DNA from: a bacterium UBP17_UBA6191
GTDB lineage: Bacteria; Muiribacteriota; UBA6191
Assembly: GCA_002422125.1 (NCBI GenBank)
Contig: DITF01000082.1
Span: forward strand, 1-48,329
Direction: 5' to 3'
Length of the DNA: 48,329 nucleotides
The translations under genes and the position numbers were made by a program. Below are positions 76 to 44,131 of the stretch, piece by piece. The notes below the pieces were generated by a model that searched no databases, had not been told where the DNA came from, and was given only the letters and a program-made list of their open reading frames with translations. Each line of letters starts with the position of its first letter. The stretch's first letter is position 1.

Positions 76-1464
76 TTAAAGCGCTTTCTGAAACAAAGTA
101 AATACCACAAGACTTAAAATCAGACCAATTAGTCCAACCATTAAACCAGCTTTAAGCATATCTGATTGCGAAACACGGTTACTGGCATAGGCTAACGCAT
201 TTGGGGGGGTTGAAACGGGAAGAGCCATTGCCAATGAACAGCTAAAACAACTCACAAGGATCAAAACAGTGGCTCCACTTTCTCCCCACTGCATTCCCAT
301 TGCCGCAACCAAGGGCAATACCAGATTGGCGGTAGCCGTAGAGGACATAAAATTTGATAGGACAAAACACAAAATGGCAAAAATGACCGACATCATCACC
401 ATACTTAAGGAACCCAGAGGCAGATTTTGAACAATTAGACTTGAAAGCCCTGTTTTCTCCATAGAGTCCCCTAAGGCGACCCCTCCAGCAACCAGCCACA
501 AAACATCCCAGCTCATATCCCTAAGTTCAGGTTTACCCACAATTTTTGTCGCCGAAAATATACATACTGGCAATAAGGCCACTGTATAGGAGTTTAACCC
601 ATGCCAGGCCCCTGTAAGCCAAAGCACCACTGTTAATGCACACACAACATATACTACATAAGCATCAACAGATTTCAAAAACCGGCCCGTCATATCGATC
701 TGAATTGATTTAGTCGCCGAGGGAAACATGACTATCAAAATGACCCATAACAAAAATAGAATGAATACCATGTAGGGCACTGCAAACTGCATCCAGCCCA
801 TAAATGAAACTGGATGAATTTCCATCAGATATTTTAAGGCAATGGCATTAGGTGGAGTACCTATAGGGGTGCCTAACCCACCAATATTGGCCGCAAATGG
901 GACCGCAAGAATCAGGGCTTTCTGTAATGGATCTCCTTGAGACAAGCCAGAAATTACGGGCATTACGATGGCCAGCATCATTGCTGTTGTAGCCGTATTT
1001 GACATAAACATCGAAAACACGGCTGTAATTAAAATCAATCCCAGCAAAACCATTTTAGGATTTTGTCCAAAGGGTTTTAATAAAACCCTAGCCAAATTTT
1101 TGTCGAGTTTAACCTTGGTGGCGGCTGAGGCCAGAAAAAAGCCACCTAAAAACAAGATTAGAATCGGGGAAGCAAACACTCCCAGAATTTCTTCCCAGCT
1201 TAAGGGATTTTGTCCAGGACCAAGAGCAGGAATCAAACTTAATGGTCGATTGGATAACATCATTAGTTGTAAAAAAATTATCCACAGGGAGGCCGCGTAA
1301 ACTGGAAACGGTTCTAAAACCCAAGCCGAAACCGCAAAAACAAAAATCGACATTACCCGCAGGTGAATCTCAGAAAAACCCTCTGGTAAGGCTGAGACTG
1401 GAATCATGAGCACTAAAAGTGGTGCAAAAATTACAAAAAGTAGTCTCCAGTTTTTCATAAACAA
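76..1464 (-). CDS. DASS/SLC13-family anion:Na+ symporter (di/tricarboxylate or sulfate type)
   Basis: 462-aa polytopic membrane ORF. It has two hairpin SNT-type motifs (FMSNTATTAMM and FMSSTATANL). It also has paired GTPIGTPPNAIA / PVSTPPNALA motifs, characteristic of DASS (VcINDY-like) carriers. Confidence 0.8.
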   Translation of the reverse strand: MFMKNWRLLFVIFAPLLVLMIPVSALPEGFSEIHLRVMSIFVFAVSAWVLEPFPVYAASLWIIFLQLMMLSNRPLSLIPALGPGQNPLSWEEILGVFASPILILFLGGFFLASAATKVKLDKNLARVLLKPFGQNPKMVLLGLILITAVFSMFMSNTATTAMMLAIVMPVISGLSQGDPLQKALILAVPFAANIGGLGTPIGTPPNAIALKYLMEIHPVSFMGWMQFAVPYMVFILFLLWVILIVMFPSATKSIQIDMTGRFLKSVDAYVVYVVCALTVVLWLTGAWHGLNSYTVALLPVCIFSATKIVGKPELRDMSWDVLWLVAGGVALGDSMEKTGLSSLIVQNLPLGSLSMVMMSVIFAILCFVLSNFMSSTATANLVLPLVAAMGMQWGESGATVLILVSCFSCSLAMALPVSTPPNALAYASNRVSQSDMLKAGLMVGLIGLILSLVVFTLFQKAL

Positions 1465-3033: not shown

Positions 3034-5673
3034 TTATTCTACTTCGGCTTCTTCAGAAGCACCATCGGGGAGATCCCCGCTGATTCGTGAAACACCTACC
3101 AAAACATCTCCCGAGGATAAGTTAATTACCTTAACCCCTTGAGTAGCTCTTCCGTAACATGGAATTTCACTAACCTGCATGCGAATTACCTTACCAGAAC
3201 TGGAAATCAAAATGATGTTGTCCTCATCCTTAATCTCCATAAATCCAACCACATTGCCAATCTTGTGATTGACCTTAATGTTTAAAACCCCTTTTCCGGC
3301 TCGGTTGGTAATACGATAATGACTCAGCCTGGTTCTTTTTCCATACCCTTTTTCCGTAACCACTAAAAGAGTAGGCTGTGATGAGTCGGCAATTTCTTCA
3401 GACTCCCCATCAGACTCGCTCTCAATCTCAGGCTCAGAAATAGACTCGGATACTGGCTCTGACTCAACATCTAAAACTTCTACCCCATCTTCAATTCCGG
3501 CTTCCAATAGAGGCACAGAATCACCAAGAGACAGAATCTCCATACCAATTACAAAATCTTCCTCGACCAGCTCAATGCCTTTGACTCCCTGGGAAACACG
3601 GCCCACACTGCGAACCTTGGCTTCAGGAAAACGAATGGCCTTGCCAAGATAAGTTCCCATTACCAACTGCCGTGTATTGTCAGAAATTTTCACTCCCACA
3701 ACCTCATCATTTTCGGTTGCAAAACGAATGGCTAAAATTCCATTTTCACGAACCGCAGAGGCATATTCTGAAAGTGGTGATTTTTTTACCAATCCTTTTT
3801 TAGTCACCATTGTGATGTAAAGACTGTCCCCATTGTCATATTGCCCATCCACACTGGACTGAACCGGAATCATGGTTGTGACTTTTTCGCCTTCAATCAG
3901 GTTTAAAAAGTTCACCATTGCTTTACCCTTAGAGGTTCTTGAGCCTTCGGGTAAAGTATGGGCATATCTGGCAAAACAGCGACCCTGATTGGTAAAAAAG
4001 AGGATATAGTCAAAGGTATGGGCAACAAATATGTCGTTTACGAAGTCATCACTACGCATAGACATTCCACTCATGCCCTTACCGCCCCGATTCTGTTGTG
4101 AATAGGTGGCTAGTGGCAAAGACTTCAGATACCCAGTGTTCGTCACAGTTATCAACTTAGGTTCATTAGCTAAAAGATCTCTAAGGTTAATCTCTCCGGC
4201 ATCAAGAATAATTTCTGAACGCCTTTCATCCCCGTACTTCTCACGAATCTCCATAAGCTCGGTTTTGATGATGTCAAAAACCATGGTTCGATTGGCTAAA
4301 ATTTCCTTGTAATGAGCAATTAACTTCTCTAGTTCTTCTAGTTCTTCAACAATTTTTTGGGTTTCCAAACTTGTTAAAGTCGATAAACGCATAGCCAGAA
4401 TTGCTTTGGCTTGAATTTCGGAAAATTCAAATCTTTCCATCAATCGTTCTCTGGCCAGATCCGTATTGGAGCTGGATTTAATAATCTGAATCACTTCATC
4501 AATATTATCCAGAGCAATTTTTAGGCCTCGTAAGATATGGGCTCGTTCTTCGGCCTTTCTTAATTCATATCTAGTTCTTCTGGTCACCACATCAAAACGG
4601 TGAGAAATATAAATACCTAAAAGCCTGGGAAGATTAAGGATTTCCGGGCGGTTCTGCACCAGAGCCACCACATTCACCCCAAATGAACTCTGAAGAGCGG
4701 TGTGTTTCAAAAGATGGTTTAAAACTATCTCCGGGTTTTCTCCCCTTTTTAACTCCACTACAATGCGCATGCCCTTTTTGTCTGATTCATCCCGCAGATC
4801 ACTAATGCCTTCGATTTTTTTATCGCGCACCAGATCAGCGATGTTTTCAATCAAGGAGGATTTGTTCACCTGAAAAGGAATTTCCGTGACAATAATGGCC
4901 TCTTTGTCCTTACTGACTTCTTCGGTGTGGGTCCTGGCTCGCATCACAACCCGACCACGGCCCGTTTTAAAGGCATCTACAATGCCGCGGCTGCCAACAA
5001 TATAACCACCAGTCGGAAAATCAGGTCCCTTGATGACTGTCATCAATTCTTCAACGGTGACATAGGGGTTATCCATGTACATAAAAAGAGCATCAATGAC
5101 TTCTCTTAGGTTGTGAGGTGGTATTTTTGTCGCCATCCCCACAGCAATTCCGTCTGCTCCGTTTACCAAGAGATTGGGAAACTTGGCTGGAAGTACAATT
5201 GGTTCCTTCAAAGACCCGTCAAAATTGTCCTGAAAATCTACTGTTTCTTTATCGATGTCAAACAGAAGCTCTTCGCCCAGAGCTTTCATTCTGGCTTCTG
5301 TATAACGATAGGCCGCGGCCGAATCCCCATCAATGGATCCAAAATTTCCCTGACCATCTACAAGTACATAGCGCATGGACCAAGGTTGAGCCATTCGAAC
5401 CATGGTTTCATAAATGGCGGAATCTCCATGAGGATGGTACTTACCCATGACCTCCCCAACAATCCTGGCCGATTTTTTAAAGGCTGCATTGTGCCGAAGA
5501 TCCAGATCCATCATCCCATAAAAAATCCGGCGATGAACTGGTTTTAAACCGTCTCTGGCATCGGGTAATGCACGGGAAACAATCACGCTCATGGCATAGG
5601 CTAGATAGGAATTTTCCATCTCCACTTTGATGGGAATATCAATAATTGTGCTGCGATTGATTATATCTTCCAT
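3034..5673 (-). CDS. gyrA: DNA gyrase subunit A
   Basis: 879 aa. The QRDR-type motif is [20 protein letters not shown] and the active-site Tyr context is [11 protein letters not shown]. The CTD has beta-pinwheel repeats. An acidic Glu/Ser-rich insertion sits in the CTD. Confidence 0.97.
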
Positions 5674-5690
5674 AAAATTATCCTTATTCC

Positions 5691-8446
<2,756 letters not shown>

Positions 8447-13409: not shown

Positions 13410-15269
13410 TTAAATCTGTTGGCGCTTTAGGTGGTTGATTAAGAGGGCTAGATCACTTTGCCGCACTCCAGAAATTAAGGATGCCTGTGCAATATCCTGG
13501 GGTAGGACTTCTTTGAGCTTTTGGCGGGATTCTTTAGATAGTGCCACAATCAGATCATAATTCATATCAGTGGGAATTCGTAATTGTGTTAGTCCTTCCC
13601 GTTCTTTAAGAATATCCTTTTGTTTTTGTATGTATCCAGAATATTTGACTTCGATCTCGGCCTCTTTTTTGACTTCATCCCCAAATGTGCTTAGAAAATT
13701 GTGTAATTTTGGTTCGATAATTTCCAAGGATTGTAGGTTTAATTCTGGTCGTCTGAGTAAATCCAGTAGAGATTTTTTCCCTGTATAGGCACTGGTTACA
13801 ATGGAGTGGGGGATACTGTCACCACAAACCTGAGTGTGCTGCAAAAAAGTCTGAATTTGATCCATACCTTTTCGTTTTGATTTCAGATTGTCTAATCGTT
13901 CTTTACTGGCAAGGCCGGAAGCATAGGCTATAGCTGTGAGACGCATATCGGCATTGTCGTGACGAATAAAAGTCCGATGCTCTACAAGCGATGTAAACAT
14001 GCGATATGGTTCCTTAGTACCCTTGGTTACCAAATCATTAATGAGCACGCCAATGTAGCTATTTTCGCGCGAGACAGCAATCGGTGGTTTTTCTTGAATT
14101 TTATTGGCGGCATTTATGCCTGCAATGATTCCTTGGGCTGCTGCTTCTTCATATCCGCTGGTTCCGTTGACCTGTCCTGCAAAATAAAGATTTTTTATGA
14201 TTTTGCTTTCCAGGCTCATAAAAAGTTGAATGGGATTAAAAAAGTCGTATTCCACGGCATAACCAGGTCTTAACATTTTGGCATTCTCTAAACCAGGTAG
14301 GGTATGTACCATTTTGATTTGTACGGAATGTGGCAAAGAACTGGAAAATCCCTGTAAATAGATTTCATTGTTAAAACGGGATTCTGGCTCTAGGTATAAT
14401 AAATGAGATGGTTTATCGGGAAATTTTACAAATTTGTCTTCGATACTTGGGCAGTAGCGTGGACCCAGGCCTTCAATCTGACCAGAATACAAGGGCGACA
14501 GATGTAGATGCTCCTCTATTACCTTACGAGTGTTGTCGGTTGTATAAGTGATGTGGCAGGGAATCTGAGGCAGGGACCTTTTTTGCGTGAGGTAAGAAAA
14601 ATGCGGCATAGGTTCTTCCCCAGCCTCAATTTCCAGACCCCTGTAATCAATGCTGGAATCAAGAATTCTGGGGGGAGTGCCAGTTTTAAGACGACCCTTT
14701 TTGATTCCAAATGAAGTGATACTTGTGGATAGATGGGTAGCTGGTGGTTCTCCAATGCGTCCCGCAGCTATCTGAGTCTGTCCAATATGACATTTTCCGT
14801 TCAGAAATGTTCCGGTGGTAACAATGACGGTCTGGGCATGGATTTCTTGGCCAGAAATAGTTTTAACTCCATATACCTGATCGTCTTTGACTAAAATATC
14901 TGTGACCACAGCCTGAAGCAGACTAAGATTTTTTTCCTGCTCCAAAGTGCGTTTCATCATGGCCTGATAGAGAATTTTGTCAGCCTGAGCCCTGAGGGCC
15001 TGAACCGCTGGACCCTTTTTGGAGTTTAAGGTACGAATTTGCAATAAGGTTTTGTCAATGGTCAAACCCATTTGCCCACCTAAGGCATCAATTTCTCGTA
15101 CTAAATGGCCCTTGGCTGTCCCGCCAATGGATGGGTTACAGGGCATTAAGGCAATGTTGTCAAGATTAAGAGTTATACAAAGTGTTTGATGTCCCATGCG
15201 CGAAGTAGCCAAGGCGGCTTCTAATCCAGCATGTCCCGCTCCGATTACAATAACTTCATAGCGTTTCAT
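13410..15269 (-). CDS. mnmG: tRNA uridine 5-carboxymethylaminomethyl modification enzyme MnmG (GidA), canonical copy
   Basis: 619 aa. FAD motif is VIGAGHAGLEAA. MPCNPSIGG, GPRYCPSIEDK, GYEEAAAQG, KEPYRMFTS..HR and the C-terminal helical domain ending ISGVRQSDLALL are also present. Confidence 0.93.
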   Translation of the reverse strand: MKRYEVIVIGAGHAGLEAALATSRMGHQTLCITLNLDNIALMPCNPSIGGTAKGHLVREIDALGGQMGLTIDKTLLQIRTLNSKKGPAVQALRAQADKILYQAMMKRTLEQEKNLSLLQAVVTDILVKDDQVYGVKTISGQEIHAQTVIVTTGTFLNGKCHIGQTQIAAGRIGEPPATHLSTSITSFGIKKGRLKTGTPPRILDSSIDYRGLEIEAGEEPMPHFSYLTQKRSLPQIPCHITYTTDNTRKVIEEHLHLSPLYSGQIEGLGPRYCPSIEDKFVKFPDKPSHLLYLEPESRFNNEIYLQGFSSSLPHSVQIKMVHTLPGLENAKMLRPGYAVEYDFFNPIQLFMSLESKIIKNLYFAGQVNGTSGYEEAAAQGIIAGINAANKIQEKPPIAVSRENSYIGVLINDLVTKGTKEPYRMFTSLVEHRTFIRHDNADMRLTAIAYASGLASKERLDNLKSKRKGMDQIQTFLQHTQVCGDSIPHSIVTSAYTGKKSLLDLLRRPELNLQSLEIIEPKLHNFLSTFGDEVKKEAEIEVKYSGYIQKQKDILKEREGLTQLRIPTDMNYDLIVALSKESRQKLKEVLPQDIAQASLISGVRQSDLALLINHLKRQQI

Positions 15270-33202: not shown

Positions 33203-33787
33203 ATGAGGAATGTCTTCTGGATGGTTCTTGTTTGTACCCTCTTTTTACTTGCAGGCTGCGGTGGTGGGGGAGGCGGAGGCGATGGAATTTCCGAGCTTCC
33301 TAATGCGCCTAGCCCTGGGTCGCCGGCCCAAAATCCTGTCATTCCCTTTCAATCTGTGTCAGTAACCCCATCCGATGATGCCCGAATCGATAAACGGGAG
33401 TCTGTGTGTGTGGAGCTTGAGTCGGCAGGCTATTTTAAGTTAACCATTAACAATCAGGTGATAGTGGATCAGTACTTTTTGCATGCAAGCAATCAAAGGT
33501 TAAAATTGCCTTACACCTACTGTCATTCCTTGGCGACTTATTTTAATCCACAAAATCCGCGAGTTGTGGTTCAGGTGGATTCCAGAAATGAGACAAATAC
33601 TGCGACTGCCAGCAAAATTGCAGTACTGCATTATTCTGAAGTTTCTCGTGGCCTCGCAGGTGTCTCTTCTCCCATTGGCCAACCGGAACTGTTTTCAACG
33701 AAATTGGGAATGTGGTTTGGAAGCAGTGTGGCTGTGGATTCGTTATCAGTGTCTGATGCTCTGGTTCAGCGACTGGCTGGTAAATGA
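33203..33787 (+). CDS. Lipoprotein with a poly-Gly tether, first gene of the fibre operon
   Basis: The signal peptide and lipobox LLAGC are followed by GGGGGGGDG. The 194-aa ORF has an ATGA overlap with the fibre gene start. Confidence 0.6.
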   Translation: MRNVFWMVLVCTLFLLAGCGGGGGGGDGISELPNAPSPGSPAQNPVIPFQSVSVTPSDDARIDKRESVCVELESAGYFKLTINNQVIVDQYFLHASNQRLKLPYTYCHSLATYFNPQNPRVVVQVDSRNETNTATASKIAVLHYSEVSRGLAGVSSPIGQPELFSTKLGMWFGSSVAVDSLSVSDALVQRLAGK

Positions 33788-36700
33788 TGAAAATAATCTT
33801 TAGAATCTTAACCTTGGTTTTTGCTCTTCTGCCAGAGGTTTGGGCATTTGATTATTTTGTGTATTCGGGAGCCCTGCTTGATAGAAATGGTTTTGCCATT
33901 GTGGTCAACTCGACAATTAACTTTGAGATTTCTTTATATGATTCGGCCTCAGGTGCCAATTCAGCTTACAAACAACAGTTTGATTCAGTGCCCGTGAAAA
34001 ACGGCTTGTTCAAACTTAGGATTGGTCCAGGGCTCCCCGATCTAAACCGCTTTAATTTTATGGAGTTAGTTGTTGATGGGGTTCCTTTGGACTCACGAAT
34101 CAGTTTATTGCCAAACCCTTTGGCGATTGGGGCTAATCGGGCCAATATATCAGAAAATAGCGTACGATTTGGGGGAATGACCACACAGGAGTTTCTGGCC
34201 TTGTCATCCACGGGTGGGGTTGGCCCAACCGTAGCTCTGACGAGGGTAGAGGTTTTAGAATCTCAGATGAGTGATGTCAGGGCTCGGGCACTGTTCACCA
34301 ATGAAACAGCCACAGTAACGGCATCGATTGTCATGGATAGCGTCACCGGTAGATTGCAGTTTCAAGGTTCCATTCCAGGATCAACCCCCAGTACCAGAAT
34401 TTTGGTATACAACTCTTTGGGGCAATCAGCTTTCACAGTCAAATCTGATGGAGAGGTCATTGCCAGTAAGTTTACGGGAAATGGTTCCGGTCTTACCAAT
34501 GTTGAGGCAGATAAACTAAGGCAGGTAACAATTGTTGGTACCGGAGACATTACCTTAGTTGGTGGGTCTGTGTTAATGGGTACAAATTCAGGGGATGGAG
34601 CAGGTCCTGGAACCATTCCCAATGCCGGCCCTGGGGTAACGGGACTATTAACTGGGGATGATTGGATTCGCTTTAACAATAACACTGGTGGTTCTGGGGG
34701 CAGTACGATTCCCACCAATGTTTTGGTTAAGACAGACATTGTAGATAACTTGATTACTAGTGCCACAGATAAGGTTTTGTCAGCCTCACGGGGCGTGTTT
34801 ATTGCTCAGGAGCTGCAAACCTTAAGAACGGATTTGAATGCTGTTGCGGCAGCTAATGGAGCACCAGTTACATTGACTAAAAATGATGTTGGTCTGGGAA
34901 ATGTTGCCAACCTAAATGTGCAGACTGCTTGGCAACAAAACAAAGGTGTTTCGATTGCATCCGATCTGTTTAAGGCTATTGATTCCGATGGTCTAAAACT
35001 TCAGGCCGCAGATGGTACGGGTATTCAGGTTAGACCTTCAGGACGGGTGGGCATTAATTCCTCTTCTCCTGCGGCGGCTTTAGAAGTGAAAGCCACAGGC
35101 AGTTTTCATGTTTTTGGGGCCTATGCGGCAGGAGATTCTACTCCGGCTATGTTTGTAACCACGGCTGGTTTTGTTGGAGTTCGCATGCAAAACCCGGTGC
35201 ATGAACTGGATGTGGCTGGGACAATTCGAGCCCAGACCTTAAGAGGAGATGGCTCCAATATTACTGGGATCACCAAGGCGCAAATCGGTTTAACCAATGT
35301 ACCAAATACCAATATTGCCTATGCAAACCCCATCGCAGCCGATGCCTTTAATGCCACCGAAGTCGGACATTTGAGGGCTGGTAGATTATCCGATGGTACC
35401 CAGCCCTGGAACAATAATGAGGCCACTCTGGCTCCTGGGACTGTGAATGATTATCTTAGAGGGGATCGAACCTGGCAGCTTTTAAATAAAGGGGCGGTTG
35501 GTTTAAGCAATGTCACAAACAATGAGCAGTTAGCCAAGGCTCAAAATTTAAGTGATCTCCCAGATAAACCCCAGTCCCGGACCAATCTTGGTTTGGGTAC
35601 AATCGCTACCCAGAACTCCAATACGGTAGCAATTACGGGAGGAACCGTTAATGGTACAGTCATTGGGGGAGCCACACCGGCGGCAGCAACCTTTACCACC
35701 GTAAATGCCACCACTTTTATTGGAGACGGTTCACAGCTTACGGGCTTAAATATTCCTTCAGCGGGCACTATTGCATCCCAGAATTTTAATGCTGTCTCTC
35801 TTACAGGTGGTAGTATTAACAATATTCCGATTGGCACAGCTACCCCATCTACAGGTAGATTTACCACGGTTACGGCCAATTCATTTATTGGGGACGGTTC
35901 ACAACTCACTGGTATCACCAAGGCATCCATTGGACTTGGCAATGTACCTAATACCAATATTCAGTACTCATCCGCTATTGCAGCCGATCAGTTTAATGGT
36001 ACCGAGGTCGGGAATTTACGGGCCAATCGTTTAGCTGATGGTACTGAACCCTGGGCCAATCGAGAGCCCCTAATCTCAAGCGGAACAACCAATCAGTTTT
36101 TTCGTGGTGATAAAACCTGGCAGACCTTATCGGCTAGTCAATTCAGCGCAACTGAAGTGGGCAATTTGAGAGCCAACTTTTTAGCCGATGGCTCAACCCC
36201 TTGGACTAACAAAGAAAACTCCATTACCGCGGGTACTACAGCCCAGTATTTTCGCGGTGATAAGTCTTGGCAAACTCTGGATAAAACGGCAGTGGGTCTA
36301 AGCAATGTCCCTAATACAAATATTCAATATTCTTCGGCCATACCAGCCGATCAGTTTTTATCAGGTGAGGTCACCAATCTTCGTGCTTCCCAACTAGCCA
36401 ATGGTTCTACTCCTTGGACTCTTAAGGAGAATGCGATTACCGCAGGCACCACGGCCCAGTATTTTCGCGGCGATAAAACTTGGCAGACCTTGGATAAGGC
36501 AGCAATTGGTCTTTCCAATGTTCCCAATACCCATATTCAGTACTCCACCGCTATTGCCGCTGATCAGTTTTTATCAGGTGAGGTCACCAATCTTCGTGCC
36601 TCACAATTAGCCAATGGCTCTACTCCCTGGACAGGTAAAGAAAATGCCATTACCGCAGGCACTACAGCCCAGTATTTTCGTGGTGATAAAACCTGGCAGA

Positions 36701-38784
36701 CCTTGGATAAAACGGCAGTCGGTTTGAATAATGTTCCCAATACCCATATTCAGTATTCTTCAGCTATTGCCGCCGATCAGTTTTTAGCTGGTGAGGTCAC
36801 CAATCTTCGTGCCTCGCAGTTGGCTGACGGTTCCACTCCCTGGACGGCCAAGGAAAATGCCATAACAGCAGGAACCTCACTTCAGTATTTCCGCGGCGAT
36901 AAAACCTGGCAGACCTTAAATGCCACAGCCGTGGGGCTGGCAAATGTTACCAATGACTTGCAGCTAAAACGGGCTTCTAATTTATTGGATTTACAGGATG
37001 TTAATGCAGCCAGAACAAACCTTGGACTTGGAACTATGGCTGAGCAGAATGCCTCTGCCGTTGCCATCACGGGTGGTAGCATTAATGCCACAACCATAGG
37101 GATCTCTAACGCATCTCAGGCCAGTTTTACGGTGCTTACGGCCCAAAGTATGAGAGTGACGGGCTCTGTTACCATCACCCAGAGTCTGACAGTTACCGGC
37201 AATGTAACGGCGGCCTTTTTTTATGGTGATGGCTCCAATCTGACAGGTCTCCCAAACAGTGGAAGCATCGCGGCTCAGAATTCGGATAACATTTCCCTAA
37301 CTGGTGGCACGATTAACAATATTGCAATTGGTGCTAGCACAGCCTCTGCGGGGCGGTTTACTACAGTCACGGCAGTCGATGGATTTTATGGAACCATTAA
37401 AACGGCTCACCAACTTGATATCACCAGAGTTGGTACTTTAGAGAGCCTAAATGTCAGTGGGGCCACCACTTTTGCCGCTGGTCTTGAGGTCACAGGCACA
37501 GTTAATGCCACGGGATTTTCTGGCAGTGGTTCATCACTCACTGGGGTGGTAAAAAGTAGTGGTGCTGAAAATATTTCCGGCGTAAAAACCTTTCAGGATG
37601 GAATTGTCTTGCAGGACTCTCCCAGTGTCTCTGATGGAACCATGAAATTTACCACGAGCTCAGGTTTTGAGGGCCGCAAAGATGGTAAGTGGGTTCCGCT
37701 GGCAGGGGCATTTAAAAATGAAATCCTAAATGATTTGGAGCCCTTCTCCAAAACCAACCATCTGGCACTGGCCAATCTTGTTCAGCATTCCGCTTCGGTC
37801 AAAATTGGATCAACTTGGTATGTAGTGTTTGCTAGTAACGGAATTGGAATACCAAACAGTGGTTTGAAACAATATACCTTTAACGAGTCCACAGGAAATT
37901 TAACAACTCAGTTTCAGATAAGTAATGTGGCTTATCAAAGAGTTTATTTAGAAGTAATTAACGGAGAGCATTATTGTTTTGCCTTAACCGGTCAAAATGG
38001 AGCTGCTGCCACCGGCCATATTTTTAAATGGGATGCAGTCAATAATCGTTTTGGGCCGGCAATTTTTCAAAGTCTTACCTTAGGTAACTCATATTCTTGG
38101 GAGTTTCGCCCAGTTACAATTGGTACGGACCACTTTATTTTATTTCCCTTTACGGGGGTCGCAGCGGCACCAACAACCTTGAATCAACGATTACGAGTTT
38201 ACAAATGGGACGGAGCGTCTTTTGTTGTACATCAGGATCTGGCGGCGGGAATCATCAATCAGATCTTAAGATTTGCGTCCAAAATTCTGCAGGTGGGTAG
38301 TAAGTACTATATGATTTTTGCTAGCACCCAGTTTGGAGCGGTGCTTTTTGAATACAACCCTGCGGCTGGAGGTTCATTTATATCCAGAGGCATTTTGAAT
38401 GGGACATTAATTGGTGATAATGGGCTGAGTGCGGAAATGTTTTCGATTGGCTCAGACTCCTATTTGGCAGTGGGTACACAAATTGCCACTGGCGATCTTT
38501 TGATTTTTAAATGGGATGGGGTTGATTTTGCCTTTTTTCAAAGAATCCGCAAAAAAGACCTGTATCCTTTAGCCAATCCTTTTGGGGTCATTTATGATGT
38601 AACCCACATGCAAAGAGGGGATGCCACATATCTTGTGCTGGCCTCGGAGTGGGTCGCATCAAGGGATGCCAGTCATCATCTACTGCGGTATGAGCCCTCG
38701 GAAAACCAATTCAAAATCAGCCAGCATTTATTGTGGGGGGGACAGTGGCTCAAAATATTGGAGCCCGTGGCAACGCCATCCTAG
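33784..38784 (+). CDS. Giant secreted phage-tail-fibre-like (chimeric trimeric-fibre-type) surface protein with a C-terminal beta-propeller tip
   Basis: 1666 aa with a signal peptide (ALLPEVWA|F). It carries iterated fibre motifs: F/L-x-GDGS-x-(L/I)-TG-(L/I) six times. NLSDLPDKPQSRTNLGLGTIATQN and NLLDLQDVNAARTNLGLGTMAEQN are present, as are (A/S)ITGG(T/S)(V/I)N and YFRGDKTWQTL repeats. The C-terminal ~350 aa forms six propeller-blade-like repeats. Confidence 0.8.
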   Translation: MMKIIFRILTLVFALLPEVWAFDYFVYSGALLDRNGFAIVVNSTINFEISLYDSASGANSAYKQQFDSVPVKNGLFKLRIGPGLPDLNRFNFMELVVDGVPLDSRISLLPNPLAIGANRANISENSVRFGGMTTQEFLALSSTGGVGPTVALTRVEVLESQMSDVRARALFTNETATVTASIVMDSVTGRLQFQGSIPGSTPSTRILVYNSLGQSAFTVKSDGEVIASKFTGNGSGLTNVEADKLRQVTIVGTGDITLVGGSVLMGTNSGDGAGPGTIPNAGPGVTGLLTGDDWIRFNNNTGGSGGSTIPTNVLVKTDIVDNLITSATDKVLSASRGVFIAQELQTLRTDLNAVAAANGAPVTLTKNDVGLGNVANLNVQTAWQQNKGVSIASDLFKAIDSDGLKLQAADGTGIQVRPSGRVGINSSSPAAALEVKATGSFHVFGAYAAGDSTPAMFVTTAGFVGVRMQNPVHELDVAGTIRAQTLRGDGSNITGITKAQIGLTNVPNTNIAYANPIAADAFNATEVGHLRAGRLSDGTQPWNNNEATLAPGTVNDYLRGDRTWQLLNKGAVGLSNVTNNEQLAKAQNLSDLPDKPQSRTNLGLGTIATQNSNTVAITGGTVNGTVIGGATPAAATFTTVNATTFIGDGSQLTGLNIPSAGTIASQNFNAVSLTGGSINNIPIGTATPSTGRFTTVTANSFIGDGSQLTGITKASIGLGNVPNTNIQYSSAIAADQFNGTEVGNLRANRLADGTEPWANREPLISSGTTNQFFRGDKTWQTLSASQFSATEVGNLRANFLADGSTPWTNKENSITAGTTAQYFRGDKSWQTLDKTAVGLSNVPNTNIQYSSAIPADQFLSGEVTNLRASQLANGSTPWTLKENAITAGTTAQYFRGDKTWQTLDKAAIGLSNVPNTHIQYSTAIAADQFLSGEVTNLRASQLANGSTPWTGKENAITAGTTAQYFRGDKTWQTLDKTAVGLNNVPNTHIQYSSAIAADQFLAGEVTNLRASQLADGSTPWTAKENAITAGTSLQYFRGDKTWQTLNATAVGLANVTNDLQLKRASNLLDLQDVNAARTNLGLGTMAEQNASAVAITGGSINATTIGISNASQASFTVLTAQSMRVTGSVTITQSLTVTGNVTAAFFYGDGSNLTGLPNSGSIAAQNSDNISLTGGTINNIAIGASTASAGRFTTVTAVDGFYGTIKTAHQLDITRVGTLESLNVSGATTFAAGLEVTGTVNATGFSGSGSSLTGVVKSSGAENISGVKTFQDGIVLQDSPSVSDGTMKFTTSSGFEGRKDGKWVPLAGAFKNEILNDLEPFSKTNHLALANLVQHSASVKIGSTWYVVFASNGIGIPNSGLKQYTFNESTGNLTTQFQISNVAYQRVYLEVINGEHYCFALTGQNGAAATGHIFKWDAVNNRFGPAIFQSLTLGNSYSWEFRPVTIGTDHFILFPFTGVAAAPTTLNQRLRVYKWDGASFVVHQDLAAGIINQILRFASKILQVGSKYYMIFASTQFGAVLFEYNPAAGGSFISRGILNGTLIGDNGLSAEMFSIGSDSYLAVGTQIATGDLLIFKWDGVDFAFFQRIRKKDLYPLANPFGVIYDVTHMQRGDATYLVLASEWVASRDASHHLLRYEPSENQFKISQHLLWGGQWLKILEPVATPS
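35911..36918 (+). repeat. Tandem coding repeats inside the fibre gene (213-bp / 71-aa unit)
   Basis: Three near-identical in-frame units lie at 36280-36492, 36493-36705 and 36706-36918 (DK(T/A)A(V/I)GL(S/N)NVPNT(N/H)IQYS..A.ADQFL.GEVTNLRASQLA.GSTPWT.KENAITAGT..QYFRGDKTWQTL). They are preceded by a truncated unit (36130-36279) and a diverged unit (35911-36129). An older diverged copy lies at 35266-35480. Confidence 0.9.
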
Positions 38785-39371
38785 AAGTTGATGAGTATAC
38801 TTATATTGTTCAGCCAAGATTCACATCACTTGCGGTAGCACCAGAGGTTGTTGCCCCGGAGTATGTCATTTTTCGTGGTGAGTTGAATTCCAAATACCTG
38901 TCTTCTCTGGCCGTGGGTCGGTTAGGTGTGGGGGTTGAGGTTCCGAGTGTGACCCTTGAGGTTAAAGGAAACACTTTTATTACCGGAGACTTAAATGTCA
39001 GCGGGACTAAAAACTTTAATATCCAGGATCCAAGATATAAAAATGATGTATCCAGAAGACTGGTGCATTCGGCCTTAGAGGGCTCAGAAGCTGCGGTGTA
39101 TTACCGAGGTCGGGCCAAACTGCAAAGGGGTCGCGTAACCATTCAATTGCCCGATTATTTTGAGGCTCTGACGGCCAAAGAAGAACGAACCGTACAGCTT
39201 ACCCCCATCAATGGATTTTCACCTTTGTTTTTGCATGGAGAGGTCGAAGACTCAAAATTTGAGGTCATGACAACGGTTCATGGTCGTGAGGATCAAGAAT
39301 TTTTCTGGGAGGTTAAGGCCGTCAGAAAAGACATACCAAGGCTTGAGGTTGAGAGAGTGGTTTATAAGTGA
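38733..39371 (+). CDS. Tail-fibre C-terminal-module ORF in the -1 frame of the fibre gene (possible frameshift extension, or a separate tip/chaperone protein)
   Basis: 212-codon open frame. The only in-frame ATG is about 34 codons from the stop. The track start is a GTG at 38733, inside the fibre ORF and with no SD. Content resembles tail-fibre ends: RLGVGVEVPSVTLEVKGN.FITGDLNVSGTKNFNIQDP....LVHSALEGSEAAVYYRGRAKL..GRVTIQLPDYFEAL. Confidence 0.55.
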   Translation: MGGTVAQNIGARGNAILEVDEYTYIVQPRFTSLAVAPEVVAPEYVIFRGELNSKYLSSLAVGRLGVGVEVPSVTLEVKGNTFITGDLNVSGTKNFNIQDPRYKNDVSRRLVHSALEGSEAAVYYRGRAKLQRGRVTIQLPDYFEALTAKEERTVQLTPINGFSPLFLHGEVEDSKFEVMTTVHGREDQEFFWEVKAVRKDIPRLEVERVVYK

Positions 39372-43108: not shown

Positions 43109-44131
43109 ATGCGAGTACACAATTTAGTTTTATCATTGACATTTATCGCCAGCTCTATGGCATCTGAGGCGGATCTTCTGACTCAGGCCAGAGGGATTTT
43201 TAAGCCAATTCCTTTGGATCAGACAGAGCTTATGAAATTGATTGATAACCCCAAAAATCCGATTACACCCGAAAAGGTTGAGCTGGGCAAAAAACTATAT
43301 TTTGATACTCGTTTATCCAAGAGTAACCTGATTAGCTGCAATACCTGTCATAATTTGTCATTGGGCGGGGTAGATGGAGTGGGGGCCGCTATTGGCCATA
43401 AATGGATGGCAAATCCACATCATTTAAATTCGCCCACAGTCTATAATTCAGTCTTTAACTTTAAGCAGTTCTGGGATGGAAGGGCTGCTGATCTTGAAGA
43501 GCAGGCCATGGGTCCAATTGTGGCAGAACCAGAAATGGCGGCTACAGAAATGATGGTGGCACATAGAATCAAGGCTAGTCCTGAATATGTGGCAGAGTTT
43601 GCCAAGGTTTTTGGAGAAGAGGAAATCAATCTGACAACCATTGGTAAAGCCATTGGGGCTTTTGAACGGACTCTGGTGACTAGGGCCCCGTTTGATGAGT
43701 ATCTTGAAGGCAAGCAGTCAGCTTTGAATGAACAACAGACCCGAGGGCTAAAGCTGTTTATGGATAAGGGCTGTATCACCTGCCATTCCGGTGTGGGAGT
43801 GGGGGGAACCATGTTTCAGAAGTTTCCATTGATGGGTAAATACAAGTATGACACTGTTGGCGATTTTAAGGGTAATGAAAACGGGCTTACCAAAGTCCCC
43901 ATCTTAAGAAATATTACCCAGACAGCCCCTTATATGCACAATGGAGCTGTGTGGACATTGGAAGAAGCTGTGGAAATTATGGCTGAAAATCAGCTTGGAA
44001 TAAAACTTAGCAGCGAGGAAGTAGCTGATATTGTGGCTTTTATGGGTAGCCTTGAAGGTGAAAAACCAAAAATTGAACTGCCAATTTTACCCAATTGGGG
44101 CCCACGAACAATTCGCCCTAATGTGAATTAG
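43109..44131 (+). CDS. Di-haem cytochrome c peroxidase (CCP/MauG family)
   Basis: 340 aa with a signal peptide and two CxxCH haem motifs (CNTCH and CITCH). FWDGRA and APYMHNG motifs are typical of bacterial CCPs. Confidence 0.9.
   Translation: MRVHNLVLSLTFIASSMASEADLLTQARGIFKPIPLDQTELMKLIDNPKNPITPEKVELGKKLYFDTRLSKSNLISCNTCHNLSLGGVDGVGAAIGHKWMANPHHLNSPTVYNSVFNFKQFWDGRAADLEEQAMGPIVAEPEMAATEMMVAHRIKASPEYVAEFAKVFGEEEINLTTIGKAIGAFERTLVTRAPFDEYLEGKQSALNEQQTRGLKLFMDKGCITCHSGVGVGGTMFQKFPLMGKYKYDTVGDFKGNENGLTKVPILRNITQTAPYMHNGAVWTLEEAVEIMAENQLGIKLSSEEVADIVAFMGSLEGEKPKIELPILPNWGPRTIRPNVN

Follow-up and report, generated by a model that had tools for sequence, protein, structure and literature searches.

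Genes whose reading frame changes at a short repeat are known from several settings, which include the poly-G/C contingency loci of bacterial surface-structure genes, programmed -1 frameshift sites, and the recently truncated alleles found at homopolymers in bacterial genomes. In contingency loci, tracts of 9-10 nucleotides (nt) are typical for switching, and those at the cut-off length may be too slow for real ON/OFF behavior (PMC6321876). G-rich motifs can also take the role of a Shine-Dalgarno (SD) sequence, which leads to initiation at a low level in the -1 frame (Sharma et al., PMC4066793). Large fibres that resemble those of phages are encoded on some bacterial chromosomes, as in Bdellovibrio bacteriovorus, whose mosaic adhesive trimeric (MAT) fibres carry a conserved β-rich domain of ~130 amino acids (aa) after the signal peptide and end in an S74 chaperone-protease or another C-terminal tip (PMC10769870). 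Here we describe a tail-fibre-like gene in the 48,329-nt contig DITF01000082.1 from the bacterium UBP17_UBA6191 (hereafter the window; all positions refer to its forward strand). Its reading frame is broken at a run of seven G residues (G7), past which a second open reading frame (ORF) continues in the -1 frame. An earlier reading of the sequence (the original prediction) had offered three explanations: slipped-strand phase variation of a second tip domain, programmed -1 frameshifting, or a homopolymer sequencing error. With a probability of roughly 0.6, we favor another one, namely a recent and real one-base frameshift allele at the G run of a single gene for a ~1862-aa fibre, ordinary and not programmed.

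The two reading frames at the G run

The features of the locus are listed in Table 1. The fibre ORF passes through the G7 and ends 14 codons later at a TAG stop (38782-38784). The -1 frame is open as of 38694. Its earliest start-type codon, a GTG at 38733, gives 212 codons up to a stop at 39369-39371, and its sole ATG is located ~34 codons ahead of this stop. The positions of the tract and of the fibre stop, and the start-less nature of the -1 ORF, were all found as originally described. Addition of one G in silico (G8) led to an 1862-aa product without interruption, reading ...HLLWGGTVAQNIGARGNAILEVDEY... with the junction ...HLLWGG-TVAQNIG..., in line with the predicted fusion of about 1860 aa. 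Removal of one G (G6) caused termination 17 codons past the Trp, where about 18 had been anticipated.

Relatives were sought with a junction-spanning query of 293 residues in a scan of one genome per species. All 293 residues were matched, in one frame, in the GenBank metagenome-assembled genome (MAG) JACFNL010000053.1 (L002), labelled Candidatus Cloacimonadota BROCD023. There the region forms a single uninterrupted ORF of 1858 aa, protein MBW7876333.1. The G8 reading of the window aligns with this protein end to end (1-1862 against 1-1858) at 89.6% identity, and HLLWGGTVA is kept across the junction. Residues 1-1649 of the orthologue match the upstream ORF and residues 1650-1858 are colinear with the downstream module. 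The sole difference in the DNA that breaks the frame is a 1-nt gap right after the G7, the window reading TGGGGGGG-ACA where L002 reads TGGGGGGGCACG; over a longer stretch, TGGGGGGG-ACAGTG is aligned with TGGGGGGGCACGGTT. The comparison strongly supports a single coding unit, with the two ORFs connected through the G run, because the single L002 ORF is colinear with the G8 reading and the two are separated by a one-base gap after the G7. The premise common to the three earlier explanations, that the ORFs are joined at the G run, is therefore borne out by the 1858-aa ORF, and the orthologue check that had been proposed with them returned one fused ORF with G7C in frame at L002 8244-8251.

Selection on both parts of the gene was estimated from the ratio of non-synonymous to synonymous divergence (dN/dS) between the window and L002. 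The ratio amounts to 0.040 before the tract, 0.077 in the propeller region next to it and 0.061 downstream, and it falls to 0.034 over the last 135 codons of the module, with a dS of ~1.6 that places synonymous sites near saturation. No stop is present within the 210 downstream codons. The relaxed selection or decay past the break that would be expected of an old pseudogene was not observed (0.061 downstream vs. 0.040 upstream). As judged from these ratios, the downstream module formerly experienced the same purifying selection as the other parts of the gene. Since selection on it has been strong and it is free of stops, the break should be recent, artefactual, or else reversible or tolerated.

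No other relative spanning the junction was recovered by a peptide-pattern scan of JGI metagenome contigs, and a degenerate DNA pattern for QFKISQHLLWG had no match in the metagenome scan. The G8 product has no exact match in a collection of 15 billion proteins. A word-indexed homologue search returned distant relatives of the C-terminal domain only (≤52% identity); it missed the window's own proteins and is thus uninformative on G8 variants.

Table 1. Features of the fibre locus in the window.
Feature	Position	Strand	Description
Fibre gene, upstream part	33784..38784	+	1666 aa; signal-peptide-like N-terminus, phage-fibre-type repeats, C-terminal EPTP-like β-propeller region
Tandem 213-nt (71-aa) repeats	36181..36917	+	Fibre shaft; 3.5 copies, 80% matches; correspond to the PHROG 38418/33513 repeat matches
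G7 homopolymer	38735..38741	+	Frame break; the orthologue has G7 then C (TGG GGG GGC = W G G), a base absent from the window
Formal X_XXY_YYZ heptamer G_GGG_GGA	38736..38742	+	In the fibre frame; judged non-functional as a programmed site
Gene continuation, -1 frame	38742..39371	+	209 codons and stop; ~90-aa low-confidence linker/shaft, then conserved C-terminal domain
GTG start picked by gene caller	38745..38747	+	208-aa ORF; preceded at 3 nt by the G run, which pairs with the anti-SD; GTT (Val) in the orthologue
Conserved C-terminal β-sandwich domain, phage-tail-fibre type	39009..39356	+	PHROG 17490/28536, predicted fold
Out-of-frame tail of the 1666-aa ORF		+	Last 13 codons, QWLKILEPVATPS; called junk
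Predicted junction peptide of the fused product			HLLWGGTVAQNIGAR
Predicted C-terminal end of the truncated product			WGGQWLKILEPVATPS

The junction in three assemblies

The identical G7 junction, with 100% identical flanks, is found in three assemblies (ENA ERZ27315062, JGI 3300001605 and Logan SRR5323121). The window is identical to the MEGAHIT-style contig k141_63133 of the ENA metagenome ERZ27315062. The JGI contig (L027) comprises 1620 nt, and 3947 nt are shown of the Logan contig (L031). JGI 3300001605 is a "454+illumina" assembly from the surface water of a Syncrude tailings pond (PMC5029510; context in PMC7674155). It alone could be traced to its source, a paper search having found no source papers for SRR5323121, ERZ27315062 or BROCD023.

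The sole other G7 of the window, at 203-209 (C7 on the coding strand), is read in frame as S-T-P-P-N. It lies inside the full-length Na/sulfate symporter gene (76..1464, minus strand) and provides an internal control for homopolymer calling. No other split gene was seen in the window. Other overlapping ORF pairs were considered as possible frameshifts, as a sign of poor assembly, and were rejected because they are distinct genes (Big_5/HhH-GPD, ParA/ParB and ThiF/TatD). Runs of G7/C7 are depleted in the window, with 2 observed for 9.1 ± 3.9 expected from dinucleotide-preserving shuffles. The tract itself is thus not above chance and is noteworthy solely for sitting exactly at the frame break.

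Domain structure of the fibre and of the downstream module

The N-terminus of the fibre resembles a signal peptide on inspection (MMKIIFRILTLVFALLPEVWA). The fibre is matched by the Pfam families Chlorovi_GP_rpt and EPTP and by PHROG 38418, PHROG 33513 and tail collar fibre, and the EPTP-like propeller region directly precedes the tract. Among solved structures, the only match of the fibre is a weak one to LGI1 EPTP. A signal-peptide-like N-terminus, fibre-type repeats and tail-fibre PHROGs together predict a surface structure, the class to which phase-variable genes often belong.

A third lineage is represented by two contigs (L028 and L029, from JGI 3300014198 and 3300014202), both of which end before the junction. 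Its fibre ORF leaves homology at codon ~1163, which corresponds to window position 37273 (L028 11499-11595 and the end of L029). Past this point, ~20-nt repeats (CTTCGATCCAnnnTTCTGA) follow, and a stop is reached shortly before the end of either contig. An independent disruption or insertion could explain the pattern, as could an assembly break induced by the repeats.

The downstream module harbors the motifs K-F-I-x-P, EG[PS]E, YYRG, LPDYFEAL, TVQLTP and WEVKAVR, as in its homologues (K-F-I-x-HP, EGPEAAVYYRG, LPDYFEAL, RTVQLTP and FYWEVKAVR). PHROG 17490 and 28536 match residues 73-207 of the 212-aa ORF with E values of 4.2e-16 and 3.2e-15, respectively, and no Pfam or NCBIfam model matches the module. 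The domain is located at or near the C-terminus in all 24 homologues, which comprise 286-864 aa, except P0019 and P0022, which have no EG[PS]E motif. At least 164 aa precede the EGPE motif in the homologues, as compared with the 111 that a stand-alone window ORF would have. A profile of the domain retrieved 22,210 clusters from a 50%-identity library at E≤1e-3, and 1,421 at E≤1e-30. The domain is C-terminal in the best 150 of the 22,210 clusters, and ~19% of the proteins in this set have fewer than 300 aa.

AlphaFold (AF2) predicted a confident β-sandwich for residues 90-205 of the module, with a predicted local distance difference test (pLDDT) score above 90; the first 89 residues were left unmodelled as a monomer. 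A Foldseek search of BFVD with this fold revealed phage minor tail and tail fibre proteins, with E values down to 5e-11. Against the PDB it gave weak matches only, to tailspike C-terminal domains (best E 7e-3), and a sequence search of solved structures with the module gave a chance-level match to L3 only. The module is therefore no optional second tip; it forms the usual C-terminal end of a tail-fibre-type protein. The term "second tip domain" used in the original prediction describes it poorly, as both the homologues and the cluster profile place its end at the usual C-terminus of thousands of fibre-like proteins. A role as self-cleaving S74 intramolecular chaperone was also considered and rejected, since Pfam gave no Peptidase_S74 match and the module has other motifs.

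The argument that the domain never stands alone was softened, as short homologues exist, one of them with its own signal peptide. In a Candidatus Nomurabacteria MAG (L017, 6491-8531), the same C-terminal domain closes a 496-aa protein, whose ORF overlaps by 59 nt with a small downstream ORF that encodes its own signal peptide and another copy of the domain. Secreted forms in which the domain stands alone thus do exist. By inspection, the downstream ORF of the window has no signal peptide, unlike this stand-alone homologue. In the chromosome of Bacteroidota SSA2 (L023), an ambiguous base (N) at ~7965 is placed in the ~96-nt gap between a 755-aa ORF (5550..7817) and a domain-bearing 239-aa ORF that begins at 7914.

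Explanations for the frame break

A miscounted homopolymer, with a true sequence of G8 or G7N and an intact gene, would account for a break that falls exactly at the run, for a downstream frame that is intact and under purifying selection, and for the uninterrupted orthologue. One of the assemblies did use 454 reads, which are prone to such miscounts (PMC5029510). However, different software produced the three assemblies that agree on this G7; at least one of them looks Illumina-only (the k141 MEGAHIT-style contig), and one was built by Logan from an SRA run. Neither the other G7 nor the three G6/C6 runs of the window, at 7579-7584, 14670-14675 and 43801-43806, break any gene. Consensus errors of Illumina assemblies at 7-nt runs are rare. 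Because the identical junction appears in three differently made assemblies, and with the other G7 read in frame, the error proposed in the original prediction is quite improbable. Slipped-strand phase variation would instead have the gene toggle between G7 (truncated fibre) and G8 (full fibre), the assemblies reporting the OFF majority. An intragenic G/C run of at least 7 is the cut-off for putative phase-variable genes in a Campylobacter screen (PMC6321876), and the predicted product, a secreted fibre-like surface protein, is of the typical gene class. Both lineages also keep TGG GGG GG even though GGG is the rarest Gly codon (18%), GGG-GGG accounts for 0 of 53 Gly-Gly pairs called across the window, preservation of the module is perfect, and the apparent disruption of the same gene elsewhere in the third lineage hints at recurrent on/off selection. 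No variation in tract length was seen in the sequences compared. All three assemblies have G7, the orthologue owes its frame to an extra C after its own G7, two metagenome scans yielded no further junctions, and G7 runs are depleted over the 48-kb window. A run of 7 is also at the lower limit, as switching was shown experimentally for runs of at least 8 and a run of 7 may mutate at <1e-5 (PMC6321876). Furthermore, the tract lies at 89% of the gene length, so that OFF would be a 1666-aa protein and not a null, and one GGG codon kept between two related lineages is weak evidence. Phase variation is thus unlikely. A broader version, in which the G run acts as a working switch that trims the distal C-terminal domain through slippage between G7 and G8 or through recoding or initiation at a low level, leaving the fibre gene unsilenced, is similarly doubtful. 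If it were true, the disruption in the third lineage might reflect recurrent selection against display of the full fibre, for example under phage or predator pressure.

Two further explanations keep both frames in use, and both appear very improbable. Programmed recoding, by -1 frameshifting on G_GGG_GGA or by slippage of RNA polymerase on the G7, would give 1666-aa and 1862-aa isoforms at a fixed ratio. As the original prediction pointed out, the heptamer formally fits X_XXY_YYZ in the 0 frame; a -1 shift there would yield exactly the orthologue-like junction WGG-TVA, the 0-frame stop is only 14 codons off, and the -1 ORF is without its own ATG. However, the two-frame arrangement is not conserved, L002 encoding the fusion directly with G7C in frame. 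The predicted GGCTC/GAGCC hairpin is present in the minimum-free-energy (MFE) fold and yet unremarkable, as the 100 nt after the tract fold at -19.3 kcal/mol compared with -20.8 ± 3.3 kcal/mol in shuffles (z +0.45), and the 48-nt stretch has a z of -0.64. No Rfam element was matched at E≤1. In bacteria, transcriptional slippage is known chiefly from A/T runs of at least 8-9. The class G_GG.G_GG.N also lies outside the efficient heptamers of an E. coli survey, an organism other than that of the window, in which G_GG.G_GG.U had the lowest efficiency measured, 0.018% (PMC4066793). With no conserved arrangement, no stimulatory structure, no Rfam element and a heptamer of the poorest class in E. 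coli, programmed frameshifting is not supported. In a two-gene arrangement, the module would be translated from the GTG at 38745 with the G run as SD and would act in trans on the fibre. The original prediction saw no SD upstream of the nominal GTG, which is correct for the codon at 38733 (anti-SD duplex of +1.2 kcal/mol) but not for this second GTG, for which the G run forms an SD-like element. With a duplex energy of -10.5 kcal/mol, pairing between the run and the anti-SD is the strongest among 31 window starts, the gene caller selected this GTG, and short proteins of ~160-280 aa with the domain exist. Against this, the spacer is merely 2-3 nt and the site lies inside one ORF in the orthologue, where the 12 frame-corrected residues ahead of the GTG are conserved as coding sequence with the fibre. 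The module ORF is also devoid of a signal peptide, whereas the fibre is predicted to be exported and the stand-alone homologue of L017 has its own. Because L002 has GTT at this codon, the GTG appears to be a fortuitous and unconserved start.

A probable recent frameshift allele

A recent frameshift allele at the G run, which we consider the best explanation, would have arisen in an intact gene for a secreted tail-fibre-like protein of ~1862 aa, made of a signal peptide, a repeat shaft, an EPTP-like propeller, a short linker and the conserved tail-fibre-type C-terminal domain. The ancestral sequence would be TGG GGG GGN ACN (W-G-G-T), and the third base of the second Gly codon would have been lost at the 3' end of the G run, either by slippage of G8 to G7 or by loss of the C of G7C. 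The resulting allele most likely dominates this population and is evolutionarily recent. The current gene would produce a 1666-aa fibre that lacks the C-terminal domain and carries 13 junk residues, and the truncated product may thus be impaired. The downstream module is probably not made in useful amounts, since it has no signal peptide and no conserved start. A slip from G7 to G8 would restore the full protein, which makes the allele reversible in principle, and there is no sign that such switching is used.

Several points weigh against this explanation. The lack of decay in the downstream module fits an error, reversible switching or continued expression equally well. The reads behind the three assemblies may overlap in part or in full, and their agreement on G7 could stem from a homopolymer error of a systematic kind or hide a population in which G7 and G8 are mixed. 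A single orthologue spans the junction, which fits either ancestral state (G8 or G7C) and hence either mutational mechanism. Finally, with a strong SD-like G run 3 nt before the GTG at 38745, some stand-alone module could be made.

In annotation, a single entry should replace both ORFs, marked as frameshifted and as the orthologue of MBW7876333.1, and the 208/212-aa "hypothetical protein" should be dropped as a separate gene. Under the frameshift explanation, the locus would add to the known cases of large surface-fibre genes in which a homopolymer frameshift has recently arisen; heterogeneity between G7 and G8 in the reads is what would make the case interesting. A by-product that may be more useful than the frameshift itself is the domain defined by the last ~120 residues of the module, which is very abundant at the C-terminus of fibre and tail-fibre proteins and for which neither Pfam nor NCBIfam has a model.

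Genomic context

The window is part of a bacterial chromosome and not of a phage. It contains gyrB, gyrA, parA/parB, mnmG, a TonB-dependent receptor gene and a gene for a 1702-aa TPR protein. The genes gyrB, gyrA, parA, parB and mnmG usually lie near the replication origin. The genome record closest to the window is labelled Candidatus Cloacimonadota, and DNA identical to the window occurs in oil-sands tailings-pond metagenomes.

A 194-aa gene of unassigned function (33203..33787, plus strand) precedes the fibre gene, its stop overlapping the fibre start (ATGA). No confident family match was obtained for it. It is kept immediately 5' of the fibre in all three lineages (L002 2719..3309; L028 7420..8004), and its product is probably a functional partner of the fibre.

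Comparison with known systems

Programmed -1 sites, such as those of phage lambda G/GT (G_GGA_AAG), dnaX (A_AAA_AAG) and IS3/IS911, share with this locus a formal heptamer, a start-less extension ORF in the -1 frame and a nearby 0-frame stop. In contrast to them, the window has a heptamer of a poor class, no stimulatory structure, no properly spaced upstream SD and an arrangement that is not conserved. The poly-G/C contingency loci in surface genes of Campylobacter jejuni, Neisseria and Haemophilus are alike in having an intragenic poly-G tract in a surface-protein gene, where one-base changes shift the frame. Their tracts typically count 8-10 G or more (PMC6321876), whereas that of the window counts 7, is located near the 3' end and would remove one domain rather than silence the gene.

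The C-terminal domain is similar to the proteins of PHROG 17490/28536 and to phage proteins of BFVD, including the minor tail protein of Arthrobacter phage Mufasa8 and a tail fibre-like protein of Prochlorococcus phage P-SSM2. They have in common a C-terminal β-sandwich of ~120 aa, with E values of 4e-16 for the sequence and 5e-11 for the predicted fold. In the window, by contrast, the domain closes a secreted 1862-aa protein whose gene lies on a bacterial chromosome, close to the replication origin; its function is unassigned in the phages too. The fibre as a whole is reminiscent of the MAT fibres of Bdellovibrio and of other chromosomal phage-tail-fibre-like adhesins (PMC10769870), with which it shares a chromosomal gene, a signal peptide, a long shaft of phage-fibre type and a modular set of C-terminal domains. 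It differs from the MAT fibres in that it has no Peptidase_S74 Pfam match, ends in another, un-named C-terminal family and comes from a MAG labelled Cloacimonadota rather than from Bdellovibrio; the likeness is one of resemblance only.

The window most closely follows the pattern of frameshift-split genes, the recent pseudogenes and truncated alleles found at homopolymers in bacterial genomes and MAGs. As in these, two overlapping ORFs are colinear with one orthologous ORF and are separated by a 1-nt indel at a mononucleotide run. Unlike the usual cases, the downstream part is undecayed, and the upstream product is still very large and probably exportable. The event is therefore either very recent or not simply inactivating.

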